Source: Schmidtea polychroa
Taxonomy: Eukaryota
Assembly (NCBI GenBank): GCA_044892525.1
Contig: CM097885.1
Location: forward strand, 24,988,001-25,052,000
Direction of reading: 5' to 3'
Length of the DNA: 64,000 bases
This document shows, in pieces, positions 14,025-40,892 of this stretch. Below the pieces are notes generated by a model that had not been told where the DNA came from, searched no databases, and worked only from the letters and a program-made list of their open reading frames with translations. A program made the translations under genes and the position numbers. Each line of letters begins with the position of its first letter. Positions within the stretch are counted from its first letter, which is position 1.

Positions 14025-14031
14025 TATATAT

Positions 14032-17000
14032 TAGGGTGGGTCGAATGTTAATAAATTTTGAGTTCAAGAAAGGAAACATGGTTAAAAAGTTGTATTTTGG
14101 TATAGAAAAATCGAATCAAACCATTTTACTTAGATTTATGGACATTTACTGCTCCCAACTTTTCTCCGAAAATGCAGTTCAACATAAGTGCGAAAACAAT
14201 GTAATTTGGCTAGTGTCGGAATGTGTTTTGCGCCTTTGTCCATATTTAGATGTAGCTTTCTTAAGATCTTATAAGTATATTATTTACTCTCTTGGGCTGA
14301 GATAGTATATTCTGTGTCGTCATCCCGCATTGAAATATATCCTGACAACGTCAGTGATTAGGAATGGCCAAATTTGAATTATCCTTTTCAAAGACAAAAA
14401 TCAACTTTCGAAATTATTTTTTATTAAAAACATCCAGCCAAAAGTTTAGAAATGTATTAGCGAGGGCATAAAAAGAAGTCACATGAAATCAGCTTTGCTT
14501 TGCACCTTGGGCAATTCCTTCCTTGATTTTTTACACAGTAGTACCATACCATGTCTGGACTTGTGACCAAACACTTTGCAACTGGCAGAAGAAACATCTT
14601 TGATGGCTCTTTCAACGGCTTGAGAATGACAGGGAAATTGTTCTAATGTAATTTTCTTATTCATCTTCAATTCATGATCCAATATATGAGATAAAAGAGG
14701 GGGAGGCGTCAAATTACATTTTGTCGAGTCAATCATGTCAACATATGATGTAGCAGACGACTGAAGAAAGACAGTATTCTTGTCCATAGTGCGAATCACT
14801 TCGGAAGGGAGAAAATTTTGTCTTGCAGTTATGATTTTTTCTGTTGCAAACTTTCTGATTTCTTCATCATCATCACCAACAGCAGCTAGGAGTATATTTT
14901 CTGGATGTGAGAAGTAATTGTTGTTCTGAATGACAGGAAAGATGATTTCTTGGTCTGATGGATCCAAATCCTGCAGAAGTTGGAGCATATAAAAAATATT
15001 TCTTGCACCATCTTGGCATGACGAGTGAGTCTTTATATAAAACCATGACGGTCCATAGAAATTGACAATAAATTTCACTATTCGCATGAGAGGTTCAGAT
15101 GGAGCAGTTTCGGACATATATAGTCGCAGAATTCTATTAGCTTTCGTTAGCCAGCGACTGTGATTCAAATTTCCTGGTTGTGCCATTTGTAGAAAAGGGA
15201 CATCCTTGTTGTTGTGGTACCCTTTCTGGACTGCCAAGCATACTCCGAGGAAATACAATTGATAAGTGTTCAATTCTTTCTTGACATTTTCACTAATATC
15301 TACGACCTTTCCAGGAAGGGACATAAAGGCTACTACGGGCTTGTCTTTTGGATCAAAATCAAGAACGCTTCCTATTTCACCACATGACGTTTTTGGACCT
15401 TTTGTTTCTCCACCATCGACGACTGAAAAATACTTCCTGAATGGCAATTCATTTGCATGCAACAAGCATATCAGCCATTGTAGAGGTCGCCCTAGGCTTT
15501 TTTCGAGTCTTCTGATTATTCCATTATTTTTTCCGGTGTTTGTATTGGTTCCATCGCACACAATTGCTTGAAGGGTCAGTGAGGACTGCGTGCTAACGAT
15601 GATTGACATGATTTCTTTGCCAATATCCACAGCTTTACTACTTTGAGGTACAACATGATCGATATATGTATCCCTTGGAAAGGCGACAATCACATAATGC
15701 TCCTCTTTTAGGATCCTTCTATGAAGTAAGGTGGAATCTTGTTTCCCGTCGAAACCGAGGCAAATCAAGTTTTTCGCTTCTGCTGAATGCTGTTCAATTT
15801 CTCTCTCCTTCCAGTACTTTCTCTGACGCCGTAATTTTGCGGGATCGATGATTGTTTGAGAGGATAACAGTTCCATATCTTTCAGAAAAGCGTTTACTAG
15901 CAAACACGTGTCTCTGTTGCTCACACCACATCTGTCAACAGCTTTACTTAATTCAGGATAATGTCTTCTATTTTGAAATTCATCACATTCTTCTACGCTT
16001 GACTCTGAGCTTTCTGTTGAATTGTCTAACTTATCTTTACTTTCATCACTAGCGGCTTCACTCTCCGTGTCACTTCTTGAGGTCGGATGTAGATCGTTAA
16101 CTTCAGTGTCCATTATTTCATTTTTCATTTGTTTTCCTTTTCCTGTAGGGCTGCTTTTCGTTTGTTTTCTCTTCAATTTTGAGGTTTCCTGTCTGTCCGT
16201 ATTTCCGATTTTCATGTTTCTGGTAGTTTGTTGGTCAATCCAGAACTCCCACTCTAAGGTAGGAATTTTCAAGGCCAATCGGCATGTACACTGACTTCTT
16301 CCACGAGCACCATCATTAAAACATTTGCAGCAACATATGTCAAACAATTTGGAAAACGAGCTTAACTTATCTTGAAATTTGGCAGATGACCTCTTGCATT
16401 CTGGATACTTCTCTAATTCACGCACTTTTGATATTAGTCGCTTGACACGAACCACAATACTACTGAACTCAACAGTTGGGATACTTGCCTTCATATAAAT
16501 TTCCTTCACCTTATTTGCGAGAAGAGTTGCTTGTTCGTTAAAGCCAGTATGAAATTGCGTACATTTCTCATTGTAACAGTAATCACGAAACACATCTTCA
16601 CAAGTAGGTAATTGGTTTCTGGGTAGTTCACAAGTTTGACCAAACAGACAATGACGTGATTTACTTCTTGTTTTGCGAAATTGGTTATTTCTCTGTCCCT
16701 TCATAACTGCTCTTCTGTACTCAGCTCTGGCAAAATAAAAGTGAATCATCAAGTTAACTTTTTTAATTAGGTCCAGCAAACACTTGACATGTAATCGAAA
16801 CAAATTAAATTATCTGAGTTTAGACTGACTAGTAGTATCCATGTGGATTATGTGTTGACTGTAGTGTGTGTGTTAGTATTGTTCAGAAGAAATTGTCTTT
16901 GTGAGTGCTTGTGTGAAGGTGCTTCCGTGAATTAACCTCTCTATACATGCACACGTTAGCTTGGACTTGTGAATAGAGCATGTCAAAAATGGTCTTTCTG

Positions 17001-17201
17001 CAAGCGTGTGACTGCTTGCAGGATTAATTTACAATGGCACGTGTGCGAGCATTTTTACTGGGATAGTACTAATACATACAAACAAAAGTTGGGACCTGTA
17101 AACCCTTTTAAACAGCAGTCTTTTGCAGGGATATTTCATTTTCTAGCATAAGCACAACTTTTTAGGCATGTTTGGAGAAAAAAAAATTTTTCGACCCACC
17201 C

Positions 17202-17203
<2 letters not shown>
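14032..17203 (-). mobile_element. hAT-superfamily (hATm-type) DNA transposon inserted in a (TA)n tract
   Basis: TIRs TAGGGTGGGTCGAA / TTCGACCCACCCTA; 8-bp TSD TTATATAT at 14024-14031 and 17204-17211. Confidence 0.9.
14479..16803 (-). CDS. hATm-type transposase, uninterrupted 774-aa frame (true start may be internal or spliced)
   Basis: FDGKQD, CDGTNTNTG, LQWLICLLHANELP, HSRWLT and FPCHSQAVER motifs. Confidence 0.8.
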   Translation of the reverse strand: MFRLHVKCLLDLIKKVNLMIHFYFARAEYRRAVMKGQRNNQFRKTRSKSRHCLFGQTCELPRNQLPTCEDVFRDYCYNEKCTQFHTGFNEQATLLANKVKEIYMKASIPTVEFSSIVVRVKRLISKVRELEKYPECKRSSAKFQDKLSSFSKLFDICCCKCFNDGARGRSQCTCRLALKIPTLEWEFWIDQQTTRNMKIGNTDRQETSKLKRKQTKSSPTGKGKQMKNEIMDTEVNDLHPTSRSDTESEAASDESKDKLDNSTESSESSVEECDEFQNRRHYPELSKAVDRCGVSNRDTCLLVNAFLKDMELLSSQTIIDPAKLRRQRKYWKEREIEQHSAEAKNLICLGFDGKQDSTLLHRRILKEEHYVIVAFPRDTYIDHVVPQSSKAVDIGKEIMSIIVSTQSSLTLQAIVCDGTNTNTGKNNGIIRRLEKSLGRPLQWLICLLHANELPFRKYFSVVDGGETKGPKTSCGEIGSVLDFDPKDKPVVAFMSLPGKVVDISENVKKELNTYQLYFLGVCLAVQKGYHNNKDVPFLQMAQPGNLNHSRWLTKANRILRLYMSETAPSEPLMRIVKFIVNFYGPSWFYIKTHSSCQDGARNIFYMLQLLQDLDPSDQEIIFPVIQNNNYFSHPENILLAAVGDDDEEIRKFATEKIITARQNFLPSEVIRTMDKNTVFLQSSATSYVDMIDSTKCNLTPPPLLSHILDHELKMNKKITLEQFPCHSQAVERAIKDVSSASCKVFGHKSRHGMVLLCKKSRKELPKVQSKADFM

Positions 17204-17271
<68 letters not shown>

Positions 17272-19739: not shown

Positions 19740-20523
19740 ATTTTAAGATATTAAAATGATTCTCTTTCACCATTATATTGTATCCATTGAAACAATGACA
19801 TTATATACACGATAAGATAGAATGACAAAAAAAGACTTTATTAAGATATAATATTTACATATTTATGATAAGTCAAATTGTTAATTATCATATTGTTATA
19901 CATTGACCCTTGGGGGCTCTACGTAGATATCCACCCGGTACTTGTTCGATAATATTTTTTACGCTCTAAATTTTCGAAGTAGCGTCCCATAACATCCAAC
20001 AATATTTCATCATTTAGTTGAACACACACCCATAAAACCCCCAAGCTGTCCTAAGACTTGGCTGGGCTCAAAAATTATCCCCACAAACATTTCACGCGTA
20101 AAACTATTGTTAAAAATTACTAACAGCCACACTTTCAAGATAAATATTGAGTATGAAAAGTACATAGTTTAATTTTGGCTGCATTTACGTAAAATTAAAA
20201 TTGCTTTGTAGAGAATTAATTAAATGTTAATATTTTAATTTGTTAGCAAAAGGGTCCGCTTGTTCCTTTCAATTATTGATTTTAAAGTAAAATTTCAGTT
20301 AAATATTTTATTTATTATCGTAATAAAAATTTCTCAGAGAAAATAATTTAATTTCAACCTTTAATAATTACAATCGATTTATAAAATAATTTATTTACTA
20401 ATCACAAAATATAAAAATAAAATATTTCGATCATAAAATACAAGTAATTTCAACAACTAATTATACCTTTATTAAAAAATAAAATCTTTTCACATAATAC
20501 ATAAACAGTTTCATTTCAAACAT

Positions 20524-22534
20524 TTAATCAACTTCTTCAACTGTCGGACCTTGTTTCCCAGCACCTCCTTGTCCGCCAGCTGCACCCGGTGCACCACCTG
20601 GAAATCCCCCTGGAAATCCGCCCGGAAATCCTCCAGCACCAGCACCACCTGCCCCTTGATACATTTTAGTCATTATTGGATTACATATCTTCTCCAATTC
20701 TTTATAATGATAATCAAACTCATCCTTAGTCGCCTGTTGATTCTTTTCCAACCAATTTATCGCTTCTTGACATTTATCAATTATCAGTTTTCTATCTGAT
20801 TCAGAAATTTTATCTTTCAGTTTTTCATCTTCAACTGTTGATTTCATTTGGTATGAATAACTTTCCAATGAATTCTTTGCAGCTATTCTGTCTTTTTGTT
20901 CTTCGTCTTCCTTTTTGTATTTTTCAGCTTCATTAACCATGCGTTCAATATCATCCTTTGATAATCGTCCTTTATCATTGGTAATGGTAATTTTATTCTC
21001 TTTTCCTGTACCCTTTTCAACTGCAGACACATTCAAGATACCATTTGCATCAATATCAAAAGTAACTTCAATTTGCGGAACACCACGTGGAGCTGGTGGA
21101 ATTCCAGCCAATTCAAATTTACCAAGCAAATTATTGTCCTTTGTCATCGCTCGTTCTCCTTCATAAACTTGAATTAAAACTCCCGGTTGGTTATCAGAAT
21201 ATGTAGTAAATATTTGCGTTTGCTTTGTTGGAATAGTTGTATTTCGTTTAATTAAAGCTGTCATCACTCCACCGGCAGTTTCTATACCCAAGCTCAATGG
21301 AGCTACATCTAATAATAATAGATCTTGTACAGCTTCTGATTTATCTCCTGACAAAATTGCCGCTTGTACTGCTGCTCCGTACGCAACTGCCTCATCGGGA
21401 TTGATGGATTTGTTCAATTCTTTTCCGTTGAACAAGTCTTGTAGGAGCTTTTGAATTTTGGGTATTCTTGTTGATCCACCAACTAATACAATCTCATGAA
21501 TTGTATTTTTATCCAACTTAGCATCTCTCAATGCTTTCTCTACTGGCTCTAAAGTCGAACGGAACAAATCAGCATTCAATTCCTCAAACCTTGCTCTTGT
21601 AATTGAAGTGTAAAAGTCAATACCTTCATATAATGAATCTATTTCCAAATTTGCTTGTGCACTGGAACTCAAAGTTCTCTTTGCTCGCTCACAAGCTGTT
21701 CTCAATCTTCTAACTGCTCGCTTGTTATCACTAATATCTTTCTTATGCTTCCTCTTGAATTCTTGAATAAAATGATTTACCATCCGATTATCAAAATCTT
21801 CACCACCCAAATGAGTATCACCAGCAGTAGATTTCACTTCGAAAATACCATCTTCAATTGTTAAAATTGATACATCAAAAGTTCCTCCTCCTAAATCGAA
21901 TATTAACACATTGCGTTCAGCACCAACCTTTTTGTCTAATCCATAAGCTATAGCAGCAGCTGTTGGTTCATTAATTATTCTTAAAACATTTAATCCACTA
22001 ATTGCACCAGCATCTTTAGTTGCTTGTCTTTGACTATCATTGAAATAAGCTGGAACAGTTACAACAGCATCTTTAACTGTTTTACCCAAGTATGCTTCTG
22101 CAATCTCTTTCATTTTTATTAAAACCATCGATGAAATTTCTTCGGGGAAAAATGTTTTTGTTTCACCTTTGAATTCTACTCGAATTTTCGGTCTACCAGT
22201 TTCATTTATTACATCGAATGACCAGTGTTTCATGTCACTTTGAACTGACGATTCATCAAATTTTCGACCAATTAATCGCTTTGCATCTAGAACATTTTAA
22301 TTACTTTACTCTAATTCAGTATTAATTCTTACCGAAAACTGTATTATTAGGATTCATCGCCACTTGGTTTTTTGCAGCATCTCCAATCAATCGTTCGGTA
22401 TCTGTAAATGCAACATAACTAGGTGTTGTGCGGTTTCCTTGATCATTCGCAATAATTTCAACTTTTCCATGTTGAAATACACCAACGCATGAATATGTAG
22501 TACCCAAGTCAATACCAATAGCGTTACCAGACAT
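20524..22534 (-). CDS. hsp70: Cytosolic heat shock protein 70, 654 aa, two exons (22534-22333, 22286-20524)
   Basis: [40 protein letters not shown] repeats and C-terminal GPTVEEVD. A 46-bp GT-AG intron (22332-22287) restores VF/DAKRLIG. Confidence 0.97.
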
Positions 22535-22611
22535 TTGGAATTCTTCAAAAGTTATAACACAATATAATAATTTTATTCAAAATTTGCAAATATACACGTA
22601 ATGAACTGCAA

Positions 22612-22720
22612 ACACTTTATATAATTAAAATATAGAAATTCTAGAAAACAAATTTTAAAACAAACATAAATTCTAGAATTAGAATATTAACAAAACGAAT
22701 GATAGAAAGTTGTAGAAACA
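22612..22720 (-). promoter_or_regulatory. hsp70 promoter: TATA box and heat-shock elements
   Basis: TATATAAAG on minus at ~22615-22623; TTCtaGAA at 22639-22646 and 22671-22678; GAAagTTGtaGAA at ~22705-22717. Confidence 0.75.
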
Positions 22721-23225
22721 TATTTACTTTATAAATCATTTTATTTAATAAAGTTTTAATGGAAAATGAACATTTTTAATAGTTTAATTAATTTTAATAA
22801 AGTATTTGTCAAATTTTTAAACAATATTATATTATGTAAATATTACACAAACTGTAAATCAATGACCAAAATGTAATATGACAATTATTTAACTCTTACT
22901 TTGTCAGGAAAAAATATAAAATGACCATATCGGTCTTTTAAGTATAATTTTTGATTATCAATATATATATTTATTTATTACATTTTTATAATAAGAAAAT
23001 CTGCACAATAAACAGAAAGGTTGTAGATAAAATTCATTAATTTGTAGTATGAGTCAATTATGAAAAGTCGTAAACAAAAAATATAGTCAAGAGCATAAAA
23101 TGACACCAGAGATACAACATTCATAAAATGCTCTTTTGATCACAATACATCAAAGTTATAATTATGAATTGAATTATATATTTATTACACTTTTATAATA
23201 AAAAAATCTGCACAGTCAACATAAG

Positions 23226-23693
23226 CAGGGTTACCAACTCGACCATTTTCACCCAAAGACTTCGGGTCTTCGGGTTGAACACTTATGACTCGTTCCAGAC
23301 TTGGTAACCTTGTAATGCATTTATTGAAAGAATTTTTTCAATAATGAATTCCGTTTGGAGAGATGAAAGAAATAAAATGAGAACTTTTTATAAGAATAAA
23401 TTTCAACATGAAATGTGAAGATTTTCTTACATATTTAAAAGCACCAGAACAAAAAAATTTACTTGAATGTTCATTAAAAACAACAAAATATAATTTTAAG
23501 AATTAATTATATTTTCTGAAGTTCCTATTTTTTTAATGTTTTCTTTTTTAATAAATTTTGTTGTTTTATGTTTTATTGTTATTGAATCAATATATTTTGT
23601 TTTATATTCATATGTATATATTATATATTATTAAATCTTCGGATGTAAAAATAATTTCTTCGGGTCTGACTCGTTCCAGACTTGGTAACCCTG
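23226..23693. mobile_element. Non-autonomous hAT MITE (468 bp)
   Basis: TIRs CAGGGTTACCAA / TTGGTAACCCTG with 8-bp TSD AACATAAG; inserted in a local ~200-bp tandem duplication. Confidence 0.9.
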
Positions 23694-23883
23694 AACATAA
23701 GAGTTGTAGATAAAATTCATTAATTTGTAGTAAAAGTTAATTATGAAGTCTGAAAACAAAAGAATATAGTCAAGAGCATAAAATGACACCAGAGATACAA
23801 CTTTCTTAAAAATGTTCTTTTGATAACAATACATCAAAGTTATAATTTCCTCCATAACTATTCTTAATCATCTTGTTTACCAT

Positions 23884-24798
23884 TGTTGGGGTTCAACAAG
23901 AGAGGCACAAAAATGAGGTGAAAATTGGCAAAAACACCAAATTCAAAATAAAAATTTAAAGTACAAAATATTAATTAAAAATCAAAAATTTTAAAAAATG
24001 AATATTTTCTGGGGGAAACTGGTATGGGCGGATGCTGAATAATGAGACGAGTTCAGCTATAATAAAATAAAATCAATGGGGGGTCCCTAAAAGGAATAAA
24101 TTACAAAAAAACAAAAATTAATTAAAAAATTAATTAACTAATGGAAAACCCGAGCTAATGGGAAACCCGAGCTAATGGAGAATCCGAGCTAATGGGAAAC
24201 CCGATACAATGGAAAACCCGAGCGAATTGAGAAATCAAATTTTGGGAAGGCAATTAATTTAGCCGGAGAAATCCAATTTTGGGAAGGCAATTAATTTAGC
24301 CGGATAAAAAGTAATAAGCGCCGTCAAAGAAAATGAACAAATTCCCTTCAATTGAATTAGACCTCCAAGAGGAAGCCCGGGGGAAATAAGACCAAAAATA
24401 ATTGGCAAAAATAAAGTCAATTACCAAGCGAGTATAAAAGCAACTGGCAAGAAAACAAAATGCCAGTTGGTCGAAGAAAAGAAAATAGAAGTTTGAAGAG
24501 AGCGAAAAAGGAAATATTAAAGTTAGTAGAAATAAAACCATTTAAAAAAATCGAACGTACCAGAAAGGGACATCTCCCGTTGGAAGATCTACCCCTGCGT
24601 GAGATTTGGTAAGAAATTGAAAAGTGCAGACAAAACCTGATTGTATCAAGTGTGAGTAAACTAATACAAGTGTAAAAGTGTAACTGCATCAGTGTCAATA
24701 AAGATTTTGTGTTGGGTTATTTATTTATTCATTTATTTATTTGGAAAAGAACACAAAGGAGTCAGACCGTAGTACCGACTTGCATTAAAAACCCAACA
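23884..24798 (+). repeat. 5' LTR (915 bp)
   Basis: TGTTGGGGTT...AACCCAACA termini; TATAAAA at ~24433; AATAAA at ~24697; matches 40323-40892 and 55424-56339. Confidence 0.93.
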
Positions 24799-24802
24799 TA
24801 TT

Positions 24803-24820
24803 TGGTGAGCCCGACGTGAT
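24803..24820 (+). promoter_or_regulatory. Primer-binding site, tRNA-Trp
   Basis: TGGTGAGCCCGACGTGAT, a 17/18 match to the tRNA-Trp PBS TGGTGACCCCGACGTGAT. Confidence 0.9.
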
Positions 24821-25192
24821 CAAAAGTCGGTGAAAATTTGTTGAAATTGTGATAATATTTGAGTGATACCGAAGAATAAAAAGATCGGTGAAAATTTGTT
24901 GAGATTAGTAAAGTATCGGAAAAATTTGGAAAAAGATAATAATAATTAAATAAATAAATATTGAAGTGAAACGTTTATTTGAAAGTGGTGAACATTTATT
25001 TGAGAATTATTAAAGTGGTGATTTTATAATTGAAGCAAAGTGGAAAAATTTGTAACGATTGATTGTTGAAAAGTCAAAATTAAAACGAAAGGTAAATTTT
25101 GTAATTGTAACACTTTGAATTTTAGACGAGTAAAGCCTGTGTTGACCCGATCATTTTATAAATTGAGAAGCCAAAGACTAATAGAGAATTTA

Positions 25193-27025
25193 ATGAGTAC
25201 CCAAAGGCTAACCAATAATACAAATAACAATGATGAAACACCTGTGTCCACGGTGGGCAACGGCAAGGAAGGCAATGATTATGCGAGTTGTCAAAAACTA
25301 CCTGTGGATCAGTACGGTGGAGATCCGCTGGAATTTGTCGATTTTATGGCAGATTACTATATGTATGCGACGGCCTATGGATGGAGCCAATCGATAATGG
25401 TGCAAAGATTACCGCTATACCTGAAAGGAGCCGCCAGAGAAGCGTGGCAACAAATTGATAAAAGAATAGTAGCAAATGACTGGACCAAGTTGAAAGACGC
25501 GCTAGCCACGAAATTAATCGGAGGGGATATAAAACGGATCATGCGACAGAAATTCTATTACCGCGTACAAAAGCCAGAGGAATCAGTAAGTGAGTTTGCT
25601 TATCATTTATCAACTCTTGCAGAGAAAGCGTTCGAAGTGAAACCAGAACAGGCCGAGATGTCAAAGCAGGTAAAAGAATTACTGCAGGATCAATTCTTGT
25701 CAGGAGTAAAGAAAGAAATTAAAAAGGCTTTATGCTATGTTGATTTTAATGACTTTGATGAATTGATCAAAAAGGCAATGAAAATTGAGCTAAATTTAAA
25801 AAGCACACAGTCAAAATCAGAGTCGTTTGCAGTCATCTCAGGCGCAAGCGAAAGATCAGTAACCCCAATTAGAAACAATCGTTTTCAAGAAACAAGTAAT
25901 CCATCACCAAAATTTAGATCCAAATTTGAGTCGAACAAGGCAACAGATATTCAAATAGATGGAAAGGAAGGTCCCATCCAATGTAGTCATTGCCAAAGGA
26001 TTGGACACCATGTTAACCAATGCTGGTTTAAAAATAGAATACAGAGAAGCCCAATTCCGATTCAGTGTGATAATTGCCAAAGAATGGGACATGACAGCAA
26101 TCAATGCTGGTCCAAAAATAATGTACAACGGAGTCCAAGGCAAATGTGGCCTGATTGGTTAAAAGGAAATGGTGCGAAAAGTTCCACTAAAGCGAACATA
26201 AATGAGCAGAGAACTAATGATAACTTACAATGCTTTAATTGCGGAAGAAAAGGGCATGTGTCACGAAATTGTTTTGCCAGGTCAAGATCAAGATCAACAT
26301 CACCATCACCGCAGAGAGATAAAGTAAATCTACAAGGACAAATTCAATGTCATTCATGCAGAAGTTATGGACACATGGCTAGATCATGTCCAAGAAATAT
26401 GGATAAATTCCAAAGGCCCATATTAAAGAAATCGATTAGGTTTCAGAGTGACAAACCGCAGATGGATAATGTAGCTTTTATTCAGCCAGATAATTTTAAT
26501 GAAAGAATTGAAAGCGAAGTGAGAGAAATGGGTCGACGTTTGGATCGATTGATGTCAAAGTTTGAATCAGAAGAGGACTACAATAATCACATGATGTATG
26601 AGTCGCAAGAGGAATTGAATGAAAAAGAGTCGAAAAGGAGAGTTATAAAAGATGATTTAGAAAGTGAAAAAGCAACAATGATAATGACCAGAATCGAAAA
26701 ACTAATTGGAAATAATGAAATAGAGTCGGCTAAAGTGATCAAATCGTTGAGAGAATTAAGTCAAATATCTTTGAGTATGAGAAAGATAAAAAGTGTAATT
26801 AGCTTGTGCGTTAACTACTATAATATGAATCCAAAGTATAAAGAAGAAATTAAAGAATTAATGAAAATATTTGGAAAAGCTTTGAGAGAGAAAACAGGGT
26901 TAGATTCCATCTTGGTGGAAGTAGTAAACGAGATTGATAAAAGTGTATTATGTTGTCGTTGTGAGGCAAATGATTGTGTAAATGATTTAAAGAAGAAATT
27001 AAAAGAAAAAAGGAAAGATGCATGA
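25193..27025 (+). CDS. gag: Gag (capsid-like domain plus four CCHC zinc knuckles) and first helical module
   Basis: YLKGAAREAW, RVQKPEESVSEF and QFLSG capsid motifs; four CX2CX4HX4C knuckles; first ATG at 25193. Confidence 0.9.
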   Translation: MSTQRLTNNTNNNDETPVSTVGNGKEGNDYASCQKLPVDQYGGDPLEFVDFMADYYMYATAYGWSQSIMVQRLPLYLKGAAREAWQQIDKRIVANDWTKLKDALATKLIGGDIKRIMRQKFYYRVQKPEESVSEFAYHLSTLAEKAFEVKPEQAEMSKQVKELLQDQFLSGVKKEIKKALCYVDFNDFDELIKKAMKIELNLKSTQSKSESFAVISGASERSVTPIRNNRFQETSNPSPKFRSKFESNKATDIQIDGKEGPIQCSHCQRIGHHVNQCWFKNRIQRSPIPIQCDNCQRMGHDSNQCWSKNNVQRSPRQMWPDWLKGNGAKSSTKANINEQRTNDNLQCFNCGRKGHVSRNCFARSRSRSTSPSPQRDKVNLQGQIQCHSCRSYGHMARSCPRNMDKFQRPILKKSIRFQSDKPQMDNVAFIQPDNFNERIESEVREMGRRLDRLMSKFESEEDYNNHMMYESQEELNEKESKRRVIKDDLESEKATMIMTRIEKLIGNNEIESAKVIKSLRELSQISLSMRKIKSVISLCVNYYNMNPKYKEEIKELMKIFGKALREKTGLDSILVEVVNEIDKSVLCCRCEANDCVNDLKKKLKEKRKDA

Positions 27026-27414
27026 TAGAGTTGAGATTTAATGAGAGATTCTTAGAAAATGACGAATTTTTGATAGATTGTGGATTTATACCAGGGAGTA
27101 CAAATGAATTAAAAATGGAAAATGTAATTACTAGTGATGAAATAATGAGTAGTAAAATAATAGACAAAAGGAATTCAAGGGAGATATTAGAGGAATTAAA
27201 TGATGCGTTATATATTGGAGATGAAGATGAAATCAATGAGAAGTTACAGATTATTGAGAAATTAGAAATGGAGGAAAACGATAAACTAAAAATAGTGAAT
27301 GCAATACGACCATATTTACATGTGAAAACCAGATATGCCAAGTTATTAAGAAGTTTATTGCAAAGATTGGGCAAGGAGCTCAGAAAGGCAATTTTTGATA
27401 GCATTAGATTATGA
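27022..27414 (+). pseudogene. Frameshifted segment of the polyprotein (second helical module)
   Basis: The only segment out of frame with gag and pol. DEFLIDCGFIP resembles DEYLYDCGCVP in the next ORF. Confidence 0.65.
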
Positions 27415-30400
27415 GGGATATGGCAAAACGGAATATGTAGACGAGCATTGGTGTGCAAAGGTCCGAAAATTGCGGAAGAGAGCGGCTGAAACGCTGGGAA
27501 AAGATGGAATTATTATAGTAATGTACAAAAGTGAAGAAATTGACGATGATGAATACCTATATGATTGTGGGTGTGTACCACAAGAGCTGGATGAAAACGG
27601 ATATTTGATCCGAGACAGACGAGTGGGATATTTAGTGAACCATATAGTCGTAGTAAAAGGAGTGAGTTTAGAAGTAAATATTGAGTCTAACAAGCCTGAC
27701 ACAGAGGAACAAAATGAAAAAGTTAAGGGAAATAAAGAAATTGATGAAATCGTTAGTGATAATGAGCAAAAAGATCCTGATAACAAAGATCAGTCCACAG
27801 AACCAGACGTACAAGGAGAGCCACTTGTACCTGAAGGCGAAATAAATGGTGAAATCAAAAATAAGAAAGTTAGAACTTTATATGAAATAAAGAAATATTT
27901 AGTGAGGTTAGAACAGGACGTCGACGAAACTAAGAAAATGTTGAAACATCTCGTTAAAGCAGTATATCCAATGTTGGACATAGAAGTAGAGGTAGATGAT
28001 GAACTGAAAGAAATAGTTAAAGAGATGAAGAATAGGCTTCCTGAAGTGATGCAGAAATTTGGCGAAGAGAATACATTTTGCGAGAGATCAGTAATTGAAA
28101 ATTTGGCAAAAAATGAAATTAATAAGGAAGTTATAATAATAGTTTTAATTTATGTTGTTTTAGAAATTGGAACCCATACGTTCGCAAGGTCAGACAAGTT
28201 AGAAAATTTGATAGACATCGCTGCCCGGCTAGTAAACGAATATTTAATGAGCTGGGTAAACGAAAAAGGTGGTTGGAAAACACTGTGTTCATCTCTAACA
28301 GAAAAGAAAAATGAGAAGCAAGAAATGAGTCCACCCCAAAGACGAGTAAATGAAAGAGTTAAGCCAGAACTAAGAAAAACTATGATATTTCCATGGGCGA
28401 TGTTTATGGTGATTACGTTTTGTGCAATAATTACACAAACATCATCTTTAGTTGCGTACGATTGTTCCCAAACTGAAATGGGAAAAGTTTATTCGGTAGT
28501 AGATATGTCGGAGTGCCCAGGTGCGTATCCGAGCAGTTTAAAAATAGAAAATGACGTAAAATATTATGTGTATCAAGAGTCTGATCTGCGAAGAACTCAA
28601 GTGAGAGAGTGTATTGTCAAACATACAACATTTGTATTCTATTGTGGTAAATGGAGCCATACGTCACTCATAAAAATGCATGCGATACCTAGGCCAGTCG
28701 AGGTGCTTCCAGAAAACTGTCTAGCAGCATTTCAAACAGGAGAATTAAAAATAAGTCCAGAAATTCGTTTAAAGGCAAAATTGAACCATAGAATACGAGA
28801 AACAATAATTGTAAAGGGAGTTATGAAAGCAAATGGCGACTGTGAAGGTGAACCATATAAAATGAACGGTAAAATTATTCAGCAAACAGTAGTGCTAGAA
28901 GAATATCTCACGAAGTTGAGAGAGTTCGAAGGAGCTTTCGATGATGATACGGGAAAATTACAAACTCATCCATTCTGTAATATGAAACAAACACATTGTC
29001 AAACAGGGGAATCGATTCTTGTTTATAATGTAGAAACAAATAAGTGTAATTTAACGCACTTAAAAACTATGAACTTTAAAGAGCTAGTAGGAGAACAGTT
29101 TAGAGATAAACCAGATAATTTCAATATGAATTATAGACCAAATAATACCATTAAATCAACCCCAGTATGGACAAAGCAAATGGGAACAGTTTTAATGTCT
29201 ACGTTACCAGCAGATGGAATGCGATTTATAAAAAAGGAAATCACAAATAAATGTGGTCGAATGGTATATGTAACAAATTATAAAGGTGTTTACGTGTCTA
29301 GAAATGTTGTGGAAGAAGCAAAAATTAAAATTCACAGAGATGACATTAAACTTACTCATTATTTTAATAATAAAATTGATTATTTGTTTCATTTTAGTCA
29401 AAACATCATGGAAAATGTATATAGAGAAATGATTCTGAACGATTGTAAGTTGAATAAAGAGATTCTCCGAAATCGGATGGCGATGACAATTACGAATCCA
29501 AATTTAGTAGCACCTATGCTAATATCAGAAAATGGAGTGTTTGCGAGAATATTTGGAGAAGCATTATACAGTTACAAATGCAAAGAAGTCACAGTGAAAA
29601 TTGCCAAATACGAAAAATGTACGAACGAATTACCAGTAAGCTTTGGGGGAAAGGTACGATTTATGGAACCGATAACTAGAATCTTGCTTGATGAACAAAC
29701 TAAACCAAAACTTTTGCAATGCAATCGATTATTAGCCCCTTTATACCGATTAGCTACAGACTCATGGATAGCCTTATCAGATTATCGTGGGGTCAAGACT
29801 CCAGACAAACTAGAATTAACAAATTTAGAATACCTGATAAATTTCACATCACTAAACAAAATGGCACAAATGGGCTTGTATGCAAGCGAAGATATCGAAG
29901 AAGCTCAAAGGAATTTGTTGTTTCCATCCAAAAAGGAACGGATAATTTCAGAAATGATTGACACAGTATTACCGAATGGAGAAGGAACAGTAAATTACGA
30001 AAATTTGCTAACACCTGATCATTTCAAACGAGCTACATATAAAAAGATGGAAAAGATTTGGGGCAAGTTCATGTTTTTGGGACAAGCATGTGCAGGTTTA
30101 GTTGGAATTTACGTGATTATGATAACGGCAAAGATGGTAGTGTCGCAAATGTTGTCAGTACATCGAATATACGTAATATCGGGATGGTCATGGAAATTAG
30201 TTATTGGTTGTATTCCATTGTTGGCTAGATTCTTTATTACAGATCATCAATTTAAAGAAATGGCAAGAGTAAGGGCACAATTAAGAAATGGCCGGAAAAG
30301 TGAGGAATCTACGTGTCAGTCGGAAGATAAAAACGACGATCATAATGATGATAACAACAACGGGGAATCGGAGTATAAATGCTTTCGAAAAAGTGTAATA

Positions 30401-32656
30401 AAGAGTAAAGTAGAGCCAGAGTCCAGGTTCTTGCTTGAACCAATGCCAAAATTAAGCGGGATTGATACTCTTAGTAGATGGTATACCCCGACATTTAGAC
30501 CAACAGGACCAGTATATCCAAGTGAAAAACTAAAGGAGATGAAAGCGGTCGATAATATCACAATAGAATTAGAGAAGATTGAACCAACGAGTGCTGAAAT
30601 TGAAAGAAAGAATATGCTTGGTCTACCATGCAGCTATGCACTAATGATAACAGTAGTAGGAGGAAAACAACCTCGAATAAACATACAGTTTAACAAGAGA
30701 AAAGTGGAAGCTTTATTAGACTCAGGCTCAAGTCATACTATAGTAGCGGAAAGTTTCTTGACGTATCAGGAGAAAGTCAAAATAAAACCAACGAATCACA
30801 TTATTAAATCAATGTCACATAATGCACTAAATATTGTTGGAAAATTAGAAGTTAAACTGATAATTGGAGATCAAGAAATAATTCATTGGGTATCAGTGAT
30901 GAGAAAAAGTCCTGTAAAATGTCTTATTGGCATGGATGTCATGGAGCAACTACATGGAATCTCTCTTGATCTGAGAACTGGAAAACTAATAAAAGGACAA
31001 ATAGGTGAAGTAGTGCCTGAAGTAGGAGAGGTATTTCTAAACCAAACATTGGAAGTACCACCAAAAAGCGAAATAATATACTATGCAGATGTTATGAGGG
31101 TCTCAGATGAGGAGTACATATTTGAGCCAAATCAAAAGCTGGTTGAAAAATACGATGTGCCTATGTGTGATGAAGTAGTGAAAGTCCAAAATAAGTCAGT
31201 ACCAGTTAGAATAGCGAATTATAGTGCAAGATCCGTTGAGATAAAGCCCAAAACCAAATTGGGAAAATTAACAAAAATCAAATCAGAGGAAGCTCAGAAG
31301 TTACCGAGAAATATAAAAATTTATAAAGAACCTCAGATCACAAGCAAAGATTTGACGGATTTGCAAAAACAAGAATTCGGTGCATTATTAAAGAAATATA
31401 GAAATGTATTTGCAAAACATGAGTATGATCTGGGACTCACTCAGGTGATTGAGCATGAAATACCATTACTCAACGAAACCCCAATAAAATTACGGCCGTA
31501 CAGAATACCATACATACATCAGGAAGAAAGTGATCGGCAAATCAAAGCAATGAAAGAATTCAATATAATAAGAGATAGTTCCTCACCATTCTCATCATCA
31601 ATAGTAGTAGTTAAAAAGAAGGACGGTGATTTAAGATTTTGTGTCGACTATCGAAAATTGAACCAAGTTACGAGAAAAGATACATATCCTATTCCTGTTC
31701 CACAGGAAATGTTCGATCAGATGGGGGAGGTGCAATATTTTACGGTAATAGATCTTAATAAAGGATACAATCAATTTAAAGTCAAAGAGAAAGATAGAAG
31801 GAAAACTGCATTTTCAGATGGGAAGGGTCTATATGAGTTTAACGTGTTACCATTCGGATTAACAGGAGCGCCTGCTACATTTCAGAGAGGTATGAATTTC
31901 GTTTTGCGCGATATACCACATGCATTAGTGTATATTGACGATATAATAATATTTTCGAATAGTTTTCAGGAACATTTGCAGGATGTGGAAACAGTATTCA
32001 AGCGATTGTTAGAAGCAAACTTAAAAATAAAACTCTCCAAATGTGAATGGGGAAAATCTGAAGTAGTTTATGTGGGTCATATCATTTCGCGTCGAGGTTT
32101 GCAACCAAATCCAGAAAATATAGAGAAAATTAAGAAATATCCTATTCCCAAGGATGTAGATCAGGTTCGGCAATTTCTGGGATTAGCTAGTTATTACAGA
32201 AAGTTTATTAAAAGTTTTTCACATGTCGCACAACCTTTGAACATGTTATTGAAAAAGCAAGCAAAATTTAAATGGACAACAGCTCAGCAAGAAGCGTTTG
32301 ATAAACTCAAAGAAAGCTTAATAAAACAGCCGATATTAAGATGTCCGAACTTTAAAAAACTGTTTATATTAATGACAGATGCCAGTAATTTCGCATTAGG
32401 CGCGGTATTAGGACAGCAAGTAGAAGGGGAAAAAGATCATGTAATTGCTTATGCCAGCAGATCATTGAAACCTCATGAAAAAAATTATTCGACAATCGAA
32501 AAAGAAACGTTAGCATTGGTATATGGGATAACCACTTTTCGACAATACCTAGTGGGCAGAAAATTTGTTGTCTTTACGGATCACAATCCGTTACAATGGC
32601 TAATGAAGCACAGAGATTCGGCCAGTAAATTAATTAGGTGGTCAATTGCGTTATAA
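27395..32656 (+). CDS. pol: Polyprotein segment: Bcl-2-like domain, chuvirus-like glycoprotein, aspartic protease, RT, RNase H (ends in a premature stop)
   Basis: WVNEKGGW (BH2-like); LVAYDC...YCGKWSH...CTNELPV; LLDSGS; RFCVDYRKLN, LPFGL, YIDD; TDASNFALGAVL, TDHNPL. TAA interrupts WSIAL*EYDF. Confidence 0.9.
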   Translation: MIALDYEGYGKTEYVDEHWCAKVRKLRKRAAETLGKDGIIIVMYKSEEIDDDEYLYDCGCVPQELDENGYLIRDRRVGYLVNHIVVVKGVSLEVNIESNKPDTEEQNEKVKGNKEIDEIVSDNEQKDPDNKDQSTEPDVQGEPLVPEGEINGEIKNKKVRTLYEIKKYLVRLEQDVDETKKMLKHLVKAVYPMLDIEVEVDDELKEIVKEMKNRLPEVMQKFGEENTFCERSVIENLAKNEINKEVIIIVLIYVVLEIGTHTFARSDKLENLIDIAARLVNEYLMSWVNEKGGWKTLCSSLTEKKNEKQEMSPPQRRVNERVKPELRKTMIFPWAMFMVITFCAIITQTSSLVAYDCSQTEMGKVYSVVDMSECPGAYPSSLKIENDVKYYVYQESDLRRTQVRECIVKHTTFVFYCGKWSHTSLIKMHAIPRPVEVLPENCLAAFQTGELKISPEIRLKAKLNHRIRETIIVKGVMKANGDCEGEPYKMNGKIIQQTVVLEEYLTKLREFEGAFDDDTGKLQTHPFCNMKQTHCQTGESILVYNVETNKCNLTHLKTMNFKELVGEQFRDKPDNFNMNYRPNNTIKSTPVWTKQMGTVLMSTLPADGMRFIKKEITNKCGRMVYVTNYKGVYVSRNVVEEAKIKIHRDDIKLTHYFNNKIDYLFHFSQNIMENVYREMILNDCKLNKEILRNRMAMTITNPNLVAPMLISENGVFARIFGEALYSYKCKEVTVKIAKYEKCTNELPVSFGGKVRFMEPITRILLDEQTKPKLLQCNRLLAPLYRLATDSWIALSDYRGVKTPDKLELTNLEYLINFTSLNKMAQMGLYASEDIEEAQRNLLFPSKKERIISEMIDTVLPNGEGTVNYENLLTPDHFKRATYKKMEKIWGKFMFLGQACAGLVGIYVIMITAKMVVSQMLSVHRIYVISGWSWKLVIGCIPLLARFFITDHQFKEMARVRAQLRNGRKSEESTCQSEDKNDDHNDDNNNGESEYKCFRKSVIKSKVEPESRFLLEPMPKLSGIDTLSRWYTPTFRPTGPVYPSEKLKEMKAVDNITIELEKIEPTSAEIERKNMLGLPCSYALMITVVGGKQPRINIQFNKRKVEALLDSGSSHTIVAESFLTYQEKVKIKPTNHIIKSMSHNALNIVGKLEVKLIIGDQEIIHWVSVMRKSPVKCLIGMDVMEQLHGISLDLRTGKLIKGQIGEVVPEVGEVFLNQTLEVPPKSEIIYYADVMRVSDEEYIFEPNQKLVEKYDVPMCDEVVKVQNKSVPVRIANYSARSVEIKPKTKLGKLTKIKSEEAQKLPRNIKIYKEPQITSKDLTDLQKQEFGALLKKYRNVFAKHEYDLGLTQVIEHEIPLLNETPIKLRPYRIPYIHQEESDRQIKAMKEFNIIRDSSSPFSSSIVVVKKKDGDLRFCVDYRKLNQVTRKDTYPIPVPQEMFDQMGEVQYFTVIDLNKGYNQFKVKEKDRRKTAFSDGKGLYEFNVLPFGLTGAPATFQRGMNFVLRDIPHALVYIDDIIIFSNSFQEHLQDVETVFKRLLEANLKIKLSKCEWGKSEVVYVGHIISRRGLQPNPENIEKIKKYPIPKDVDQVRQFLGLASYYRKFIKSFSHVAQPLNMLLKKQAKFKWTTAQQEAFDKLKESLIKQPILRCPNFKKLFILMTDASNFALGAVLGQQVEGEKDHVIAYASRSLKPHEKNYSTIEKETLALVYGITTFRQYLVGRKFVVFTDHNPLQWLMKHRDSASKLIRWSIAL

Positions 32657-35362
32657 GAATATGATTTCGAGATAAAATATCGTACAGGAAAGTCAAATGC
32701 AAATGCGGATGCTATGTCGAGAATACCCGTAGAAAATAATGTTGATCAAGAGGAAAATAATTGCGAAAATACAATATTCATGGAAATTAAAACGGTAAAT
32801 AATATAGAAAAATTACAAGATGATCAGGAAAATGACGAGGAATTAAATCAGTTACGTCAACATGCTGTCTCAATCAAAAAGGAGAGTGACTGGAAACATA
32901 TTGTCGAAGAGAACCATAAATACATTATTCATGATGGTTTGTTAAAATGTGTACAAAATGAAAATTTGTTAATTATTGTTCCGACAAAACATCGAAAATA
33001 ATTACTGTTGTTGTATCACGATGGAGGATTAGGAGGGCATTTATCAGCGCGAAAAACATTATCAAGATTGAAACAGAAATATTATTGGAAAACGATGGAA
33101 CAAGATGTCAGACAATGGTGTCATACGTGTGAGATATGCCTAACAAGACGAAATACGGGACGGAAAATAAAAGTTCCGCTTAAGCCTATGCCAGTGCCAA
33201 AGGCGCCAATGGAAATGACAGCAATGGACATCGTTGGTCCATTGCCGGAAACAACAAATGGCAAAAAATACATTATTGTTTTTTGCGACTATCTTACTAA
33301 ATGGCCAGAAGCTTATGCAATGCCAAATCAGAAAGCAGAAACAGTTGCGAAAATATTTGTGGAGAATATTATTTTTCGATACGGAGCACCAAAGAAATTA
33401 CTTACAGATCAAGGAACAAATTTTCAGAGTGAATTATTTAAATCAATCACAGATTTATTTGGTATATTGAAACTTAGTACCTCACCATATCATCCACAAA
33501 CAGATGGTCTAGTTGAAAGATTTAATGGGACACTAATTAATATGATATCATCCTATGTAAATAGGAAACAAAAGGATTGGGATTTATTCATTAAACCATG
33601 CTTATTTGCATACCGGAATGCAGTAAATGAAAGCACTGGAGAAACACCCTTTTATCTCATGTATTTACGACGAAACAATATGCCAGTCGATCTAGAATTT
33701 CAGTCACCTATTTCCCAATATATGGATGTGTCAGATTATAAAATAGCTATGCATGAAAGACTACAGTCAGTATGGATCCAAGCTGGACTTAACATAAGGC
33801 ATCATCAAGAAGCGTATAAAGAATGCTATGATAAACGCGCACGGGTACATGACATTAAAATTGGAGATCTCGTGTATATAAACAAACCAGAACCAACAAA
33901 AGGCTTGTCAAAGAAATTGCAACGACCGTTTAAAGGACCATATCTAGTGTGTGATACGACAGAGACTAACTTAAAATTGCGTCCACAAAACAATAAAAAG
34001 GCTGGGACAATCATCGTTCATGTAAATAGATGCAAGAAGATAATAGGAGAAGATGAATCACGTTATCCATTGAGATCAAAACAAAATAAAGATGCAGGGA
34101 ACCCAGTAATTAAACAAAAGTTTACAAAAAACCCTGCTCCATTGAGTTACATCAATAAAGTTTTATTGATTACAACAGTAATGATTATCAATATAATGTC
34201 AGTAAATGCAGTGAGAGTATTCCCGTTATATGCAACTAATACAGTTGTATTATTAGACAAAGTTCATATTTATTCAACATGTACTCAAATAGTTTGGGTT
34301 TATTATGCTGGAGGAGCAGAAGAAATAGAGATAAATAATCTAATAAACTATTTTGAACCCCCAATAAAATTGAACAGCACCAAAAATATTTATGTGGCTA
34401 GACAATTAACAATGAATTATGAATACCCTTGGGTAATTACGCAATTGGATTCGAAAAGTAATAATACAAAAATACAAAATCTTATACGGATTAATATTTG
34501 GACAAAGAGATTACATAATCGAGTATCAATTGAACCACTGGTAAATGGAATTGACATATATTGGGAACCCCAGGAATCCCAGCAAGTAAAAGCAGTTTTT
34601 CAAAATTATGCGATAGATACATTGAATAGCAGAAAACCCTTTATAAAGTATGCAAATTTAAAATTACATCATAACTATAATATTCTGATTCATTATTATG
34701 AAAAATCTTTATATGAAAACGGAACTGAAATTGATAGCCAATGGATCAGAATACACTCTAGTCAACATATGATACGATTAGTTAATGAAACAAACCGGGT
34801 TACTTTTCATATTTTCAATCAATTAGTGAATGTTACCCGACAAGCGGAGCCCAATCAAAAAGCTATTTTATATTATTATGGAAAAATTCAATCGATATTA
34901 AATGAAAAAAATAAATCTCAAATATTAACTTTTCGTCAACGTTCACCAATATCGACGTCAAAATTTGTGTTCATTAAAATAAAATACTATAGACGTTCTC
35001 TATTTTCAAATTTATGGCAATTAACTTTAGTAGAAAATAAAATTGTGCAAATTCCATCTATCAACTCACAGTATGGAAATCGAAACAAATCAAATCAGTC
35101 CAACCGAACCCCTAGCTCTGCCAACGTAATCATCTTTTCTAGCATCAATGAGTCAATGACTAATAACGAAACCATATCGTCATTAAAAACGGACAGTGAA
35201 ATTGTGTGTGCAACATTATTAATAACTACTCTCATTATAACAATCTCTCTCATTATTCTCATTATCATTGTGTTAATTGAATTTCGAACAATACCCAAAC
35301 CTTCTACGAATCGATCCGAGATTGCGAGACCTTGGGTCGTTTATGAAGAAACATTTGTGTAG
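32657..35362 (+). CDS. RNase H end, integrase (HHCC, DDE core, GPY) and fused C-terminal type-I membrane protein; one internal stop at 32999-33001
   Basis: YHDGGLGGH...CHTCEIC, MDIVGP, TDQGTNF, YHPQTDGLVER, PFKGPY. Then hydrophobic VLLITTVMIINIMSVNA, an Asn-rich ectodomain and the TM segment IVCATLLITTLIITISLIILIIIVLI. Confidence 0.88.
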
Positions 35363-35790
35363 TAAGACATAAATACTTTGCATGCAAAAATTGATAAAGT
35401 AGTAGTAGTAATATAGTATAAATATTTTATGGATATTATTAGTATTTTATTTCATTATGGATATGATCAATATTTCATTTTATTTTACTTGTGAATCTGC
35501 ACTTTTCAATGTCAACGGAAAGAATCAATTTGATTGGTTAGCGCTGTGTTAAGGGGGAGAGAAAAACGGGGTTAAGGGAATTTTCACAAGGGTATTAAAA
35601 GAGGGTAAAATCCATTAAACTCCATTAATTTTGAGGAAAAAAATATATATCAACAATTAACTAAACGGTAATTATTATTATTTATTTATACAGCTAGTAG
35701 CTGGGACAGTATCCTTCGGATACTTCATCTCAGCCCTAGTTTTAAAAGTAAAGTAAATTCAAACGTTAAATTATAACTATTTTAGCAAAA

Positions 35791-37260
35791 ATGGAACAAG
35801 TACAATGGACAAGATCCACCTACGACAGTTACTTCAAGATGCAGAAAAATCATGCCAGCCAACAATTATACGAAATCAATGAAAATTTACAAATTCCAAA
35901 TTATTTGCTGATAGATGACAGAAGAATGAAGATACGAATGTTTACAATAAGGAGAAATTCAGAATTGAAATTGACAGATGAAATTGAGTTGTCTCGGAAG
36001 GAAGAATATCACATACACGTGATCAGAGGTACAGTGGAAGTGCTGAAGAACGATAATACAATATGGTGGCAACTTCGAAAATTCACATCGTGGAAGCTGC
36101 AGAAGGACTTCATGTGGAGAACACTACGAGCAGCGAATGAGGAGACAACGTTGGTGGTGGAAATCAGAATTGAGAATGAAGCAGATGAAGTACCACAGAT
36201 GCATCTAATTGAAGGAGAAGACCCAATGTTATTGAAAATTTCAAAGGAAATGTTGAAAAAGAAAATGTCGTTTCTCAGAAAAGAAATGGATCTAGAAGAA
36301 ATCCGCAGTCGAATATTATTCATTGATGCTGAATATGGCACATCAGAGCAAGGGAAAATGGTCCCTTTAGCAATAGCAATTATGAATTATTATGGGAAAG
36401 TAGTAAAAGATGTATACCTCACTCCAAGAGGAAAAATCCGACATTTTAATTCAAGGATCCATGGAATTACAGAAGTGGCCAGCAGGAACCAATGTGATCA
36501 ATATGTGGCAATGAAAGAGATACAACGCTTGACAGTAGGCAAGATATTGATCGGCCATGATTTGCATGCAGAATTACAATACTTGGGGATATGGATTGAA
36601 CAATTGTACGGCATTCGAGATCTAGCAGCAGCACCAATACTTCAGAACATGGGAGTAACCATAAGGGGAGAATGGTTCAAACTACAAACAGTGGTGAAAG
36701 AAATATGTGGAGAACAGACTCAGATGAGTATTCATTCGGCTCTCGAGGACGTGAAAAGTATACGCAAGGTATACCAGAAAGTGGAAAGTCAATGGATTGA
36801 TGACATACCGATGCCCAAAAATCAACCGTCAAAGCGATATTCGTGGGATGAATATAAGAAGCTTCGGGAAATTGAATCAACATCAACTGCAATACTAGAA
36901 AAACTAACGCAAATTCCAATTGAAGATGTAATGGAATCTGAAGAAATTGATTTAACATTCGAGGAGAATGTGACGATGGATAGTGAAAATCCATTGATTC
37001 AATTGAAGTGGGCCAATGAATCATTCTTAGAAATTGCGGAAGAATGTGTCGCATTAATGGTAAGCATTCCGATGATAAGGATACATCCAACACTTGAATA
37101 TGGTCCAATGCCAGAATGTAGAAAATCCAAAAAGAGAAAAACAACTTCGAACATTGATGTCGGAGACACTGTCACTGTCAATGGTGTTGTATATGAACGC
37201 GAAGAAACAATAATACGATATCGGCATGAAACGAAACGATTAGAAATAAAGATGGATTAA
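35791..37260 (+). CDS. DEDDh (DnaQ-like; REX4/ISG20-type) 3'-5' exonuclease with an unknown N-terminal domain, inside the retroelement
   Basis: FIDAEYG (ExoI), IHGIT, ILIGHDLHAEL (ExoII), IRDLA, HSALED (ExoIII); intact 489-aa ORF between IN and PPT. Confidence 0.85.
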   Translation: MEQVQWTRSTYDSYFKMQKNHASQQLYEINENLQIPNYLLIDDRRMKIRMFTIRRNSELKLTDEIELSRKEEYHIHVIRGTVEVLKNDNTIWWQLRKFTSWKLQKDFMWRTLRAANEETTLVVEIRIENEADEVPQMHLIEGEDPMLLKISKEMLKKKMSFLRKEMDLEEIRSRILFIDAEYGTSEQGKMVPLAIAIMNYYGKVVKDVYLTPRGKIRHFNSRIHGITEVASRNQCDQYVAMKEIQRLTVGKILIGHDLHAELQYLGIWIEQLYGIRDLAAAPILQNMGVTIRGEWFKLQTVVKEICGEQTQMSIHSALEDVKSIRKVYQKVESQWIDDIPMPKNQPSKRYSWDEYKKLREIESTSTAILEKLTQIPIEDVMESEEIDLTFEENVTMDSENPLIQLKWANESFLEIAEECVALMVSIPMIRIHPTLEYGPMPECRKSKKRKTTSNIDVGDTVTVNGVVYEREETIIRYRHETKRLEIKMD

Positions 37261-40308: not shown

Positions 40309-40320
40309 AAAGGGGGGAGA
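40309..40320 (+). promoter_or_regulatory. Polypurine tract
   Basis: AAAGGGGGGAGA 2 nt before the 3' LTR, preceded by the palindrome AGATTCGAGGTCGAATCT. Confidence 0.9.
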
Positions 40321-40322
40321 TA

Positions 40323-40892
40323 TGTTGGGGTTCAACAAGAGAGGCACAAAAATGAGGTGAAAATTGACAAAAACACCAAATTCAAAATAAAAATTTAAAG
40401 TACAAAATATTAATTAAAAATCAAAAATTTTAAAAAATGAAAATTTTCTGGGGGAAACTGGTATGGGCGGATGCTGAATAATGAGACGAGTTCAGCTATA
40501 ATAAAATAAAATCAATGGGGGGTCCCAAAAAGGAATAAATTACAAAAAACAAAAATTAATTAAAAATTAATTAACTAATGGAAAACCCGAGCTAATGGGA
40601 AACCCGAGCTAATGGAGAACCCGAGCTAATGGGAAACCCGATACAATGGAAAACCCGAGCGAATTGAGAAATCCAATTTCGGGAAGGCAATTAATTTAGC
40701 TTGATAAAAAGTAATAAGCGCCGTCAAAGAAAATGAACAAATTCCCTTCAATTGAATTAGACCTCCAAGAGGAAACCCGGGGGGAAATAGGGCCAAAGAT
40801 AATTGGCAAAAATAAAGTCAATTATTAAACGAGTATAAAAGCAACTGGCAAGAAAACAAAATGCCAGTTGGTCGAAGAAAAGAAAATAGAAG
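40323..40892 (+). repeat. 3' LTR, truncated after ~570 bp
   Basis: Matches 23884-24491 with one repeat unit missing and several substitutions. Homology stops at GAAAATAGAAG. Confidence 0.92.

Follow-up and report, generated by a model that had tools for sequence, protein, structure and literature searches.

The closest described systems are the Burro elements of planarians, in which gag is followed, in one frame, by a BCL2-like motif, a mononegavirus-like env and then pol (Arkhipova and Yushenova 2019, PMC6431247). That review credits the description of Burro (GYPSM1) to Grohme 2018 and Jurka 2007 and calls for experiments (PMC6431247). BURRO1 and BURRO4 are reported to be silenced by PIWI in a paper in whose accessible text the term "BCL" does not occur (PMC8532177), and there are further related papers (PMC11410931, PMC11209288). 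A literature search, with most subscription journals outside its scope, found no study of the structure or function of the domain. The position of a Bcl-2 domain directly before env in Burro elements is already published, and the original prediction, made on one such element, overlooked this description. The present analysis makes a modest addition to this: it provides a fold predicted with confidence, documents that BH1 has been lost in all families, points to a lineage that has no Bcl-2 domain and thereby identifies the hydrophobic stretch as primarily a signal peptide, and offers a testable model of membrane anchoring.

The window, that is, the whole stretch of 64,000 nucleotides analysed here, carries a gypsy LTR element of the Burro type with the polyprotein order gag-env-pol. 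As had been proposed, the Bcl-2-like motifs are part of a retroelement polyprotein, where they lie in frame between gag and Env. The features of the element are as follows.

23884..24798, plus strand: 5' LTR (TGT...ACA), about 50 bp longer than the roughly 865 bp of other copies
24803..24820, plus strand: primer-binding-site-like TGG... stretch just inside the LTR, identical in the two other copies examined and presumably a match to tRNA-Trp
25070..27025, plus strand: gag with CCHC knuckles (zf-CCHC, E 2.3e-10)
27350-32656, plus strand: open reading frame of 1768 codons that holds all the motifs of the original prediction
27923..28297, plus strand: predicted Bcl-2-fold domain with six predicted helices (profile searches, shuffle controls, AlphaFold, fold search)
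28118..28159, plus strand: BH1-equivalent turn and core helix, INKEVIIIVLIYVV, with NKEV in place of NWGR
28253..28276, plus strand: BH2 motif WVNEKGGW (alignment and copy comparison)
28382..28447, plus strand: probable internal Env signal peptide (hydropathy 2.19), with an inferred cleavage site
28448..30145, plus strand: Env, a Monjiviricetes-type fusion glycoprotein (PF24664, E 2.7e-84), with a transmembrane segment at 30065-30145
30665..32656, plus strand: aspartic protease, reverse transcriptase (YIDD at 31931) and RNase H (Pfam)
33002..35362, plus strand: integrase, then a second signal-like stretch, a segment rich in N-glycosylation sequons and a transmembrane segment (Pfam and sequence features)
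35770..37260, plus strand: accessory ORF with an exonuclease domain of the DEDDh type (RNase_T, 22.1 bits, below the cut-off of 24, E 2.4e-4)
40309..40892, plus strand: polypurine tract and truncated 3' LTR, the LTR itself at 40323-40892

Along the frame at 27350-32656, Pfam profiles match in the order weak full-length Bcl-2, Monjiviricetes-type fusion glycoprotein, protease, reverse transcriptase and RNase H, with the gag knuckles upstream of this frame and the integrase downstream. In the window copy the frame is lost at two points, near 27005 and near 27390, and two stops interrupt it further on, at 32654 (32654-32656, in frame) and 32999; since it is broken upstream of the Bcl-2 domain, it likely makes no product. 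Two other natural copies, 16.4 and 17.4 kb in length, have 865-bp LTRs that are more than 99.6% identical and a single frame of 3437 codons. The family has at least 150 near-identical copies: in a genome search, all 150 that were scored (the best 150 of 1655 candidates) show 96-100% identity, 4 of these have an internal stop within the match, and 16 were counted manually as having the 3437-codon frame.

Several other features of the element and its surroundings deserve mention. The second signal-like stretch after the integrase (34160-34210) is followed by a segment of 330 aa with 11 N-glycosylation sequons and by a transmembrane segment at 35201-35278. For the 330-aa segment, the ESM Atlas gives weak leads to fibronectin-III/cytokine-receptor-like proteins (scores 0.85-0.90, recognition 1951). 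Among seven proteins compared, this membrane segment is common to the window family and family C only, and it is absent from the description in the Burro section of the review (PMC6431247). The exonuclease ORF at 35770-37260 has a homologue in family B. Around the element, a 5.3-kb duplication with 99.6% identity (20024-25311 and 51564-56852 of the window) contains a 590-codon open frame for Hsp70 on the minus strand together with the 5' LTR and the start of gag, and the element lies upstream of Hsp70 in head-to-head orientation, at a distance of about 1.6 kb. Positions 14031-17204, between TA tracts, are likely a DNA transposon with inverted ends (TAGGGTGGGTCGAA) and a minus-strand ORF of 776 codons that has no Pfam match.

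Like Burro, the window element encodes one polyprotein with Gag and its CCHC knuckles, a BCL2-like motif, a mononegavirus-like fusion glycoprotein and PR-RT-RH-IN, and high copy number is common to both. The hallmark env is in frame between gag and pol (PF24664, then PR, RT and RH in one ORF), and the BCL2-like motif directly precedes it. The regions that hold the ubiquitin-like domain (before BCL2) and the dUTPase-like domain (between PR and RT) of Burro are homologous between the window element and its relatives; the corresponding stretch of P0001 matches ubiquitin weakly (E 0.016), and neither region of the window family gave a Pfam or PDB match. In contrast to Burro1, which exceeds 30 kb, encodes 4873 aa and has MATH, BIR and ankyrin modules, the window family measures 16-17 kb with its 865-bp LTRs and 3437-codon frame, its ORFs gave no Pfam match for these modules, and it adds a C-terminal membrane protein and the exonuclease ORF. 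Its smaller size and the absence of matches to MATH, BIR and ankyrin mark it as a shorter relative of Burro rather than Burro1 itself. The giant family D of the same genome does fit Burro1, with MATH, ankyrin and BIR modules and the Bcl-2 domain in the same place, and from these modules we infer a Burro-type element in a planarian host.

At least five families in this genome carry the Bcl-2 domain directly before Env: A (the window), the close family A' (L115), C (3334 codons), B (3053 codons) and D, with domain identities to the window of 53, 37, 26 and 16% for A', C, B and D, respectively. Env identity between domain-bearing families is 31-45%. In family D, the ORF with the BIR module is adjacent, and the BIR, TRAF/MATH and ankyrin modules of this family are together associated with cell-death and immune signalling. 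In the same giant family (L130:8302-9762), a TRAF-like accessory ORF (zf-TRAF and MATH) adjoins the BIR ORF of 392 aa. Outside this genome, the domain is found in P0001, again directly before Env. It is missing from P0002 and P0003, which retain the gag-env-pol layout, so one lineage can dispense with the domain. When eight Env rows are placed in a tree, these two proteins form one branch (100/99) within the domain-bearing rows, which suggests a single loss of the domain in their lineage, the tree being rooted at its midpoint and its true root not established. P0004, P0006, P0007 and P0008 were set aside as evidence on the domain, their coverage being of Env only, and the first three resemble mosaic gene calls. 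Between one pair of copies (A against A'), dN/dS is 0.25 for the domain and 0.43-0.44 for the flanking spacers, rough values because dS (0.9-4.7 over the compared regions) is near saturation. By the same measure, constraint is stronger on Env (0.01-0.07) and the protease (0.09) than on the domain. Values for the window family against families B, C and D are mostly saturated.

A Bcl-2-like domain had been predicted at 27960..28450. The quoted motifs are confirmed in frame, and the domain starts slightly before this interval, with its first helix at 27923. In the proposed comparison with PF00452, the window domain aligns over the full profile (positions 1-100 of 100, covered by 91 residues) with 22.4 bits and E 1.8e-4, below the curated cut-off of 31.4 bits. 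None of eight domain-bearing proteins passes this cut-off: seven score below it and the copy from the giant family gave no match. Three copies of family B that were checked exceed it, at 32.2-33.3 bits. A profile built from eight element rows, with no host sequence, retrieves Bcl-xL (E 2.4e-5), and among the 60 matches listed all are Bcl-xL or Bcl-2. Conversely, a profile of eight host-type Bcl-2 frames from the same genome gives the window domain 38.6 bits, a score that was reached by none of 1000 shuffled sequences (maximum 12.1) and by none of 1000 shuffles in which the WxxxxGGW octamer was held fixed (maximum 19.4). ESM Atlas features of the domain point to BCL2L15 and BID (0.90-0.92). A PDB search with the single sequence of the domain returned nothing better than E 0.34, a 193-aa piece searched among longer proteins gave no homologue among 737 candidates, and related loci were not found in metagenome and viral contigs. 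P0005, the sole phmmer match among 1.84 billion representatives, was rejected as spurious, being a repeat protein matched over 35 residues.

From the eight-row alignment, which represents the five families and P0001, AlphaFold predicts a Bcl-2 helical bundle, the fold originally proposed, with six helices, a pLDDT of 85 and a pTM of 0.83; helices 2 and 3 are fused in this model. A model from the single sequence had a pLDDT of 39.6 and was not used. A wide fold search with the alignment-based model reached Z 13.6, with an rmsd of 3.3 and 133 of 135 residues aligned. Bcl-2-fold proteins fill the first 34 rows of this search, and the best unrelated protein has Z 5.8. The nearest structures (A179L, trBcl-2L2 and Bcl-xL; Z 13.4-13.6) are all BH3-binding proteins. 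Bak and Bcl-xL superpose at Z 13.4 with an rmsd of 2.5-2.9 Å. The original prediction suggested that the domain may act outside apoptosis, as some poxviral proteins do; the model has Z 12-13.6 against cellular, asfarviral and herpesviral Bcl-2 proteins and is more distant from vaccinia A52, A46 and B14 (7.0, 6.6 and 5.2). Foldseek gave no match at E <= 0.001 with this model; the PDB matches that it lists are all Bcl-2 proteins with a probability of 1.00, and viral Bcl-2 proteins stand at the top of its viral library. Predicted models can lean toward familiar folds. Nevertheless, four partly independent routes (Pfam, the element-only profile, the host-type profile and AlphaFold) converge, and on these sequence and model grounds a Bcl-2 fold is nearly certain.

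The two BH motifs differ in their fate, much as the original reading of BH2 as intact and BH1 as degenerate implies. Within the WVNEKGGW of BH2, GGW is present in all 30 of the best-scoring copies (a sample biased by that choice) and in all eight alignment rows, where it is invariant together with L66 and Y82. Neither of the outcomes named beforehand as refuting the prediction, a different predicted fold and a GGW that varies between copies, was thus observed. At the NWGR position, the same 30 copies all have NKEV, and the eight rows show NKEV, DKEV, DRDV, NRDK, DQNR and TFAK, so that WGR is found in no family. Where BH1 has its Gly, families A, A', B and C carry an acidic residue, Glu or Asp, and P0001 carries Ala. 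BH1 is better preserved in sister lineages, as GVNRDK in family B and as VTFAK in P0001. By profile register, Gly-Asp is missing from the helix at the BH3 position. In Bcl-2, W144A, G145E and R146A are each reported to abolish Bax binding (PMC6825947), and the equivalents of all three residues are changed in the element domain. Since NWGR is absent, we class the domain as a Bcl-2-fold homologue and not as a canonical BH1-bearing Bcl-2 protein.

As to its origin, a tree relating the domain to host Bcl-2 sequences, as had been suggested, separates the element domains from nine host and Maverick-type rows at one branch (94/96), with long branches, and leaves the donor not established. A GT splice donor stands directly after the GGW codon in five of eight host-type loci, whereas the element reads through without an intron there, which is consistent with capture from mRNA; on this sequence evidence, the domain was likely captured from a host mRNA. 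Of 11 host-type frames, L048 is the best match (36.5 bits, the next 25.1), but it is not established as the donor gene because the join in the tree reaches only 73/79. A second exon was looked for at L048 and none was identified. Multi-copy Polinton/Maverick-like elements of the same genome also carry Bcl-2-like ORFs, free-standing and with BH1 and BH2 better kept (G000:C1:247541801-247542064, L078/L060; G000:C1:34775875-34776186, L075/L066), so that Bcl-2 is carried by two unrelated mobile elements in this genome. Packaging-ATPase, integrase and polymerase-like ORFs were recognised by eye in these elements, one of which has inverted repeats, and their Bcl-2 ORFs group with L048 (87/83). Bcl2 homologues of adintoviruses and Polintons are already in print (PMC8502044). 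Separately, seven near-identical host-type Bcl-2 gene copies (L037-L043) lie within 0.9 Mb (G000:C4:89.9-90.8 Mb), with NWGR intact and, as checked in L037, no splice donor after GGW.

The hydrophobic stretch behind the domain (MIFPW...CAII, 28382-28432, with LVAYDC at 28448) begins 36 residues after GGW in the window family, and this spacing ranges from 22 to 55 residues in six domain-bearing proteins. In the natural polyprotein, it is the first strong hydrophobic segment past the Bcl-2 core helix, and the Env transmembrane segment is next. It was originally read as the signal peptide of the glycoprotein, and this is highly probable, since YDC is preceded by a similar segment in all 10 proteins examined; because P0002 and P0003 keep the stretch without a Bcl-2 domain, it is primarily an Env signal. 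In standard topology, the product upstream of such a signal stays on the cytosolic face, held by the signal helix, comparable to the capsid anchors of flaviviruses. With such a topology, the stretch would probably also anchor the upstream domain to the membrane after cleavage, a tail-anchor role that the original prediction proposed and that is topologically reasonable.

We therefore have a divergent Bcl-2-type domain, with a full predicted fold, in a Burro-type gag-env-pol polyprotein, and our main reading, which we put at roughly 55% from sequence and model, is that it was captured from the host and keeps the expressing cell alive without the standard BH1 contacts. Gag and the Bcl-2 domain would be made in the cytosol; the hydrophobic stretch would insert into the ER and thread Env into the lumen; signal peptidase would cut before xxAYDC, after which the Bcl-2 domain would be held at the cytosolic face by a helix at its C-terminus, as tail-anchored Bcl-2 proteins are; and the element protease would free it from Gag. 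In the least secure step, the domain would dampen host death or stress signalling through contacts other than the lost BH1 Gly and Arg. Cytochrome c release in planarians is described as Bak/Bcl-2-based (PMC8998228). This reading is supported by the same position of the domain in five families and P0001, by a dN/dS lower than that of the spacers, and by the death- and immune-type modules (BIR, TRAF/MATH, ankyrin) of the giant sister family. Counting against it, an ER signal anchor would not put the domain on mitochondria, the groove residues needed for Bax binding are changed, the spacing between GGW and the stretch is variable, constraint on the domain is weaker than on Env and the protease, and P0002 and P0003 do without it. 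A bolder version, doubtful as a whole, is that the same helix is at once the signal peptide of Env and the tail anchor of the Bcl-2 domain. Each synthesis of Env would then leave at the surface of the ER a protein with a Bcl-2 fold and no groove, which would control host survival in a manner unlike known viral Bcl-2; if true, a retroelement would be counteracting cell death in an animal rich in stem cells.

One may argue that the domain instead inhibits apoptosis in the conventional way, through BH3 binding and with a BH1 that is no longer recognisable, in analogy to F1L and M11L, and that it would sequester host Bak or BH3-only proteins. Its nearest structures bind BH3, sister lineages keep more of BH1, and poxviral F1L is reported to bind Bak despite highly divergent BH domains (PMC2836074), but the replaced Gly in A, A', B, C and P0001, the compact domain (91 residues over a 100-position profile) and the fused helices 2 and 3 make this unlikely, and a Trichoplax protein without that Gly was judged in a review unlikely to have a working groove (PMC8998228). 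When the domain was modelled in complex with a Bak-like BH3 stretch of the host, without an alignment, the score was 0.01, which speaks neither for nor against binding. We also consider it improbable that the domain no longer signals and is kept for structural reasons, as a spacer near the membrane or a matrix-like module that links Gag to the Env signal anchor. Its constant place directly before the signal peptide, the intermediate constraint on its codons and the conservation of its hydrophobic core and GGW above the groove residues would fit such a role, yet relatives without the domain keep the gag-env-pol layout, and a pure spacer needs no folded domain across families whose Env proteins are so diverged. 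Finally, the sub-threshold PF00452 score in the window, the Foldseek result and the low-confidence single-sequence model could suggest that a helical bundle containing GGW resembles Bcl-2 by chance; this is extremely improbable and, on sequence and model evidence, refuted for practical purposes by the element-only profile, both shuffle designs and the fold search, with the family B copies above the PF00452 cut-off also opposing it.

Among viruses, Bcl-2 genes are characteristic of those with large DNA genomes. Here a reverse-transcribing element has kept Bcl-2 in families that are deeply diverged, which suggests that its spread is limited by the death of host cells. Like cellular Bcl-xL, Mcl-1 and Bak, the element domain has the (predicted) fold, the BH2 motif W-x-x-x-x-GGW, a buried core helix and a hydrophobic segment C-terminal to BH2; unlike them, it is without NWGR, lies inside a polyprotein and would use an Env signal peptide as its anchor. 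With viral Bcl-2 proteins (ASFV A179L, gammaherpesvirus vBcl-2, poxvirus F1L/M11L and A52/B14/A46, and those of adintoviruses/Polintons), it shares the theme of a host death regulator on a mobile element with eroded BH motifs. In those DNA viruses, however, Bcl-2 is encoded by a free-standing gene; in the present element, which replicates by reverse transcription, it is one segment of a polyprotein.
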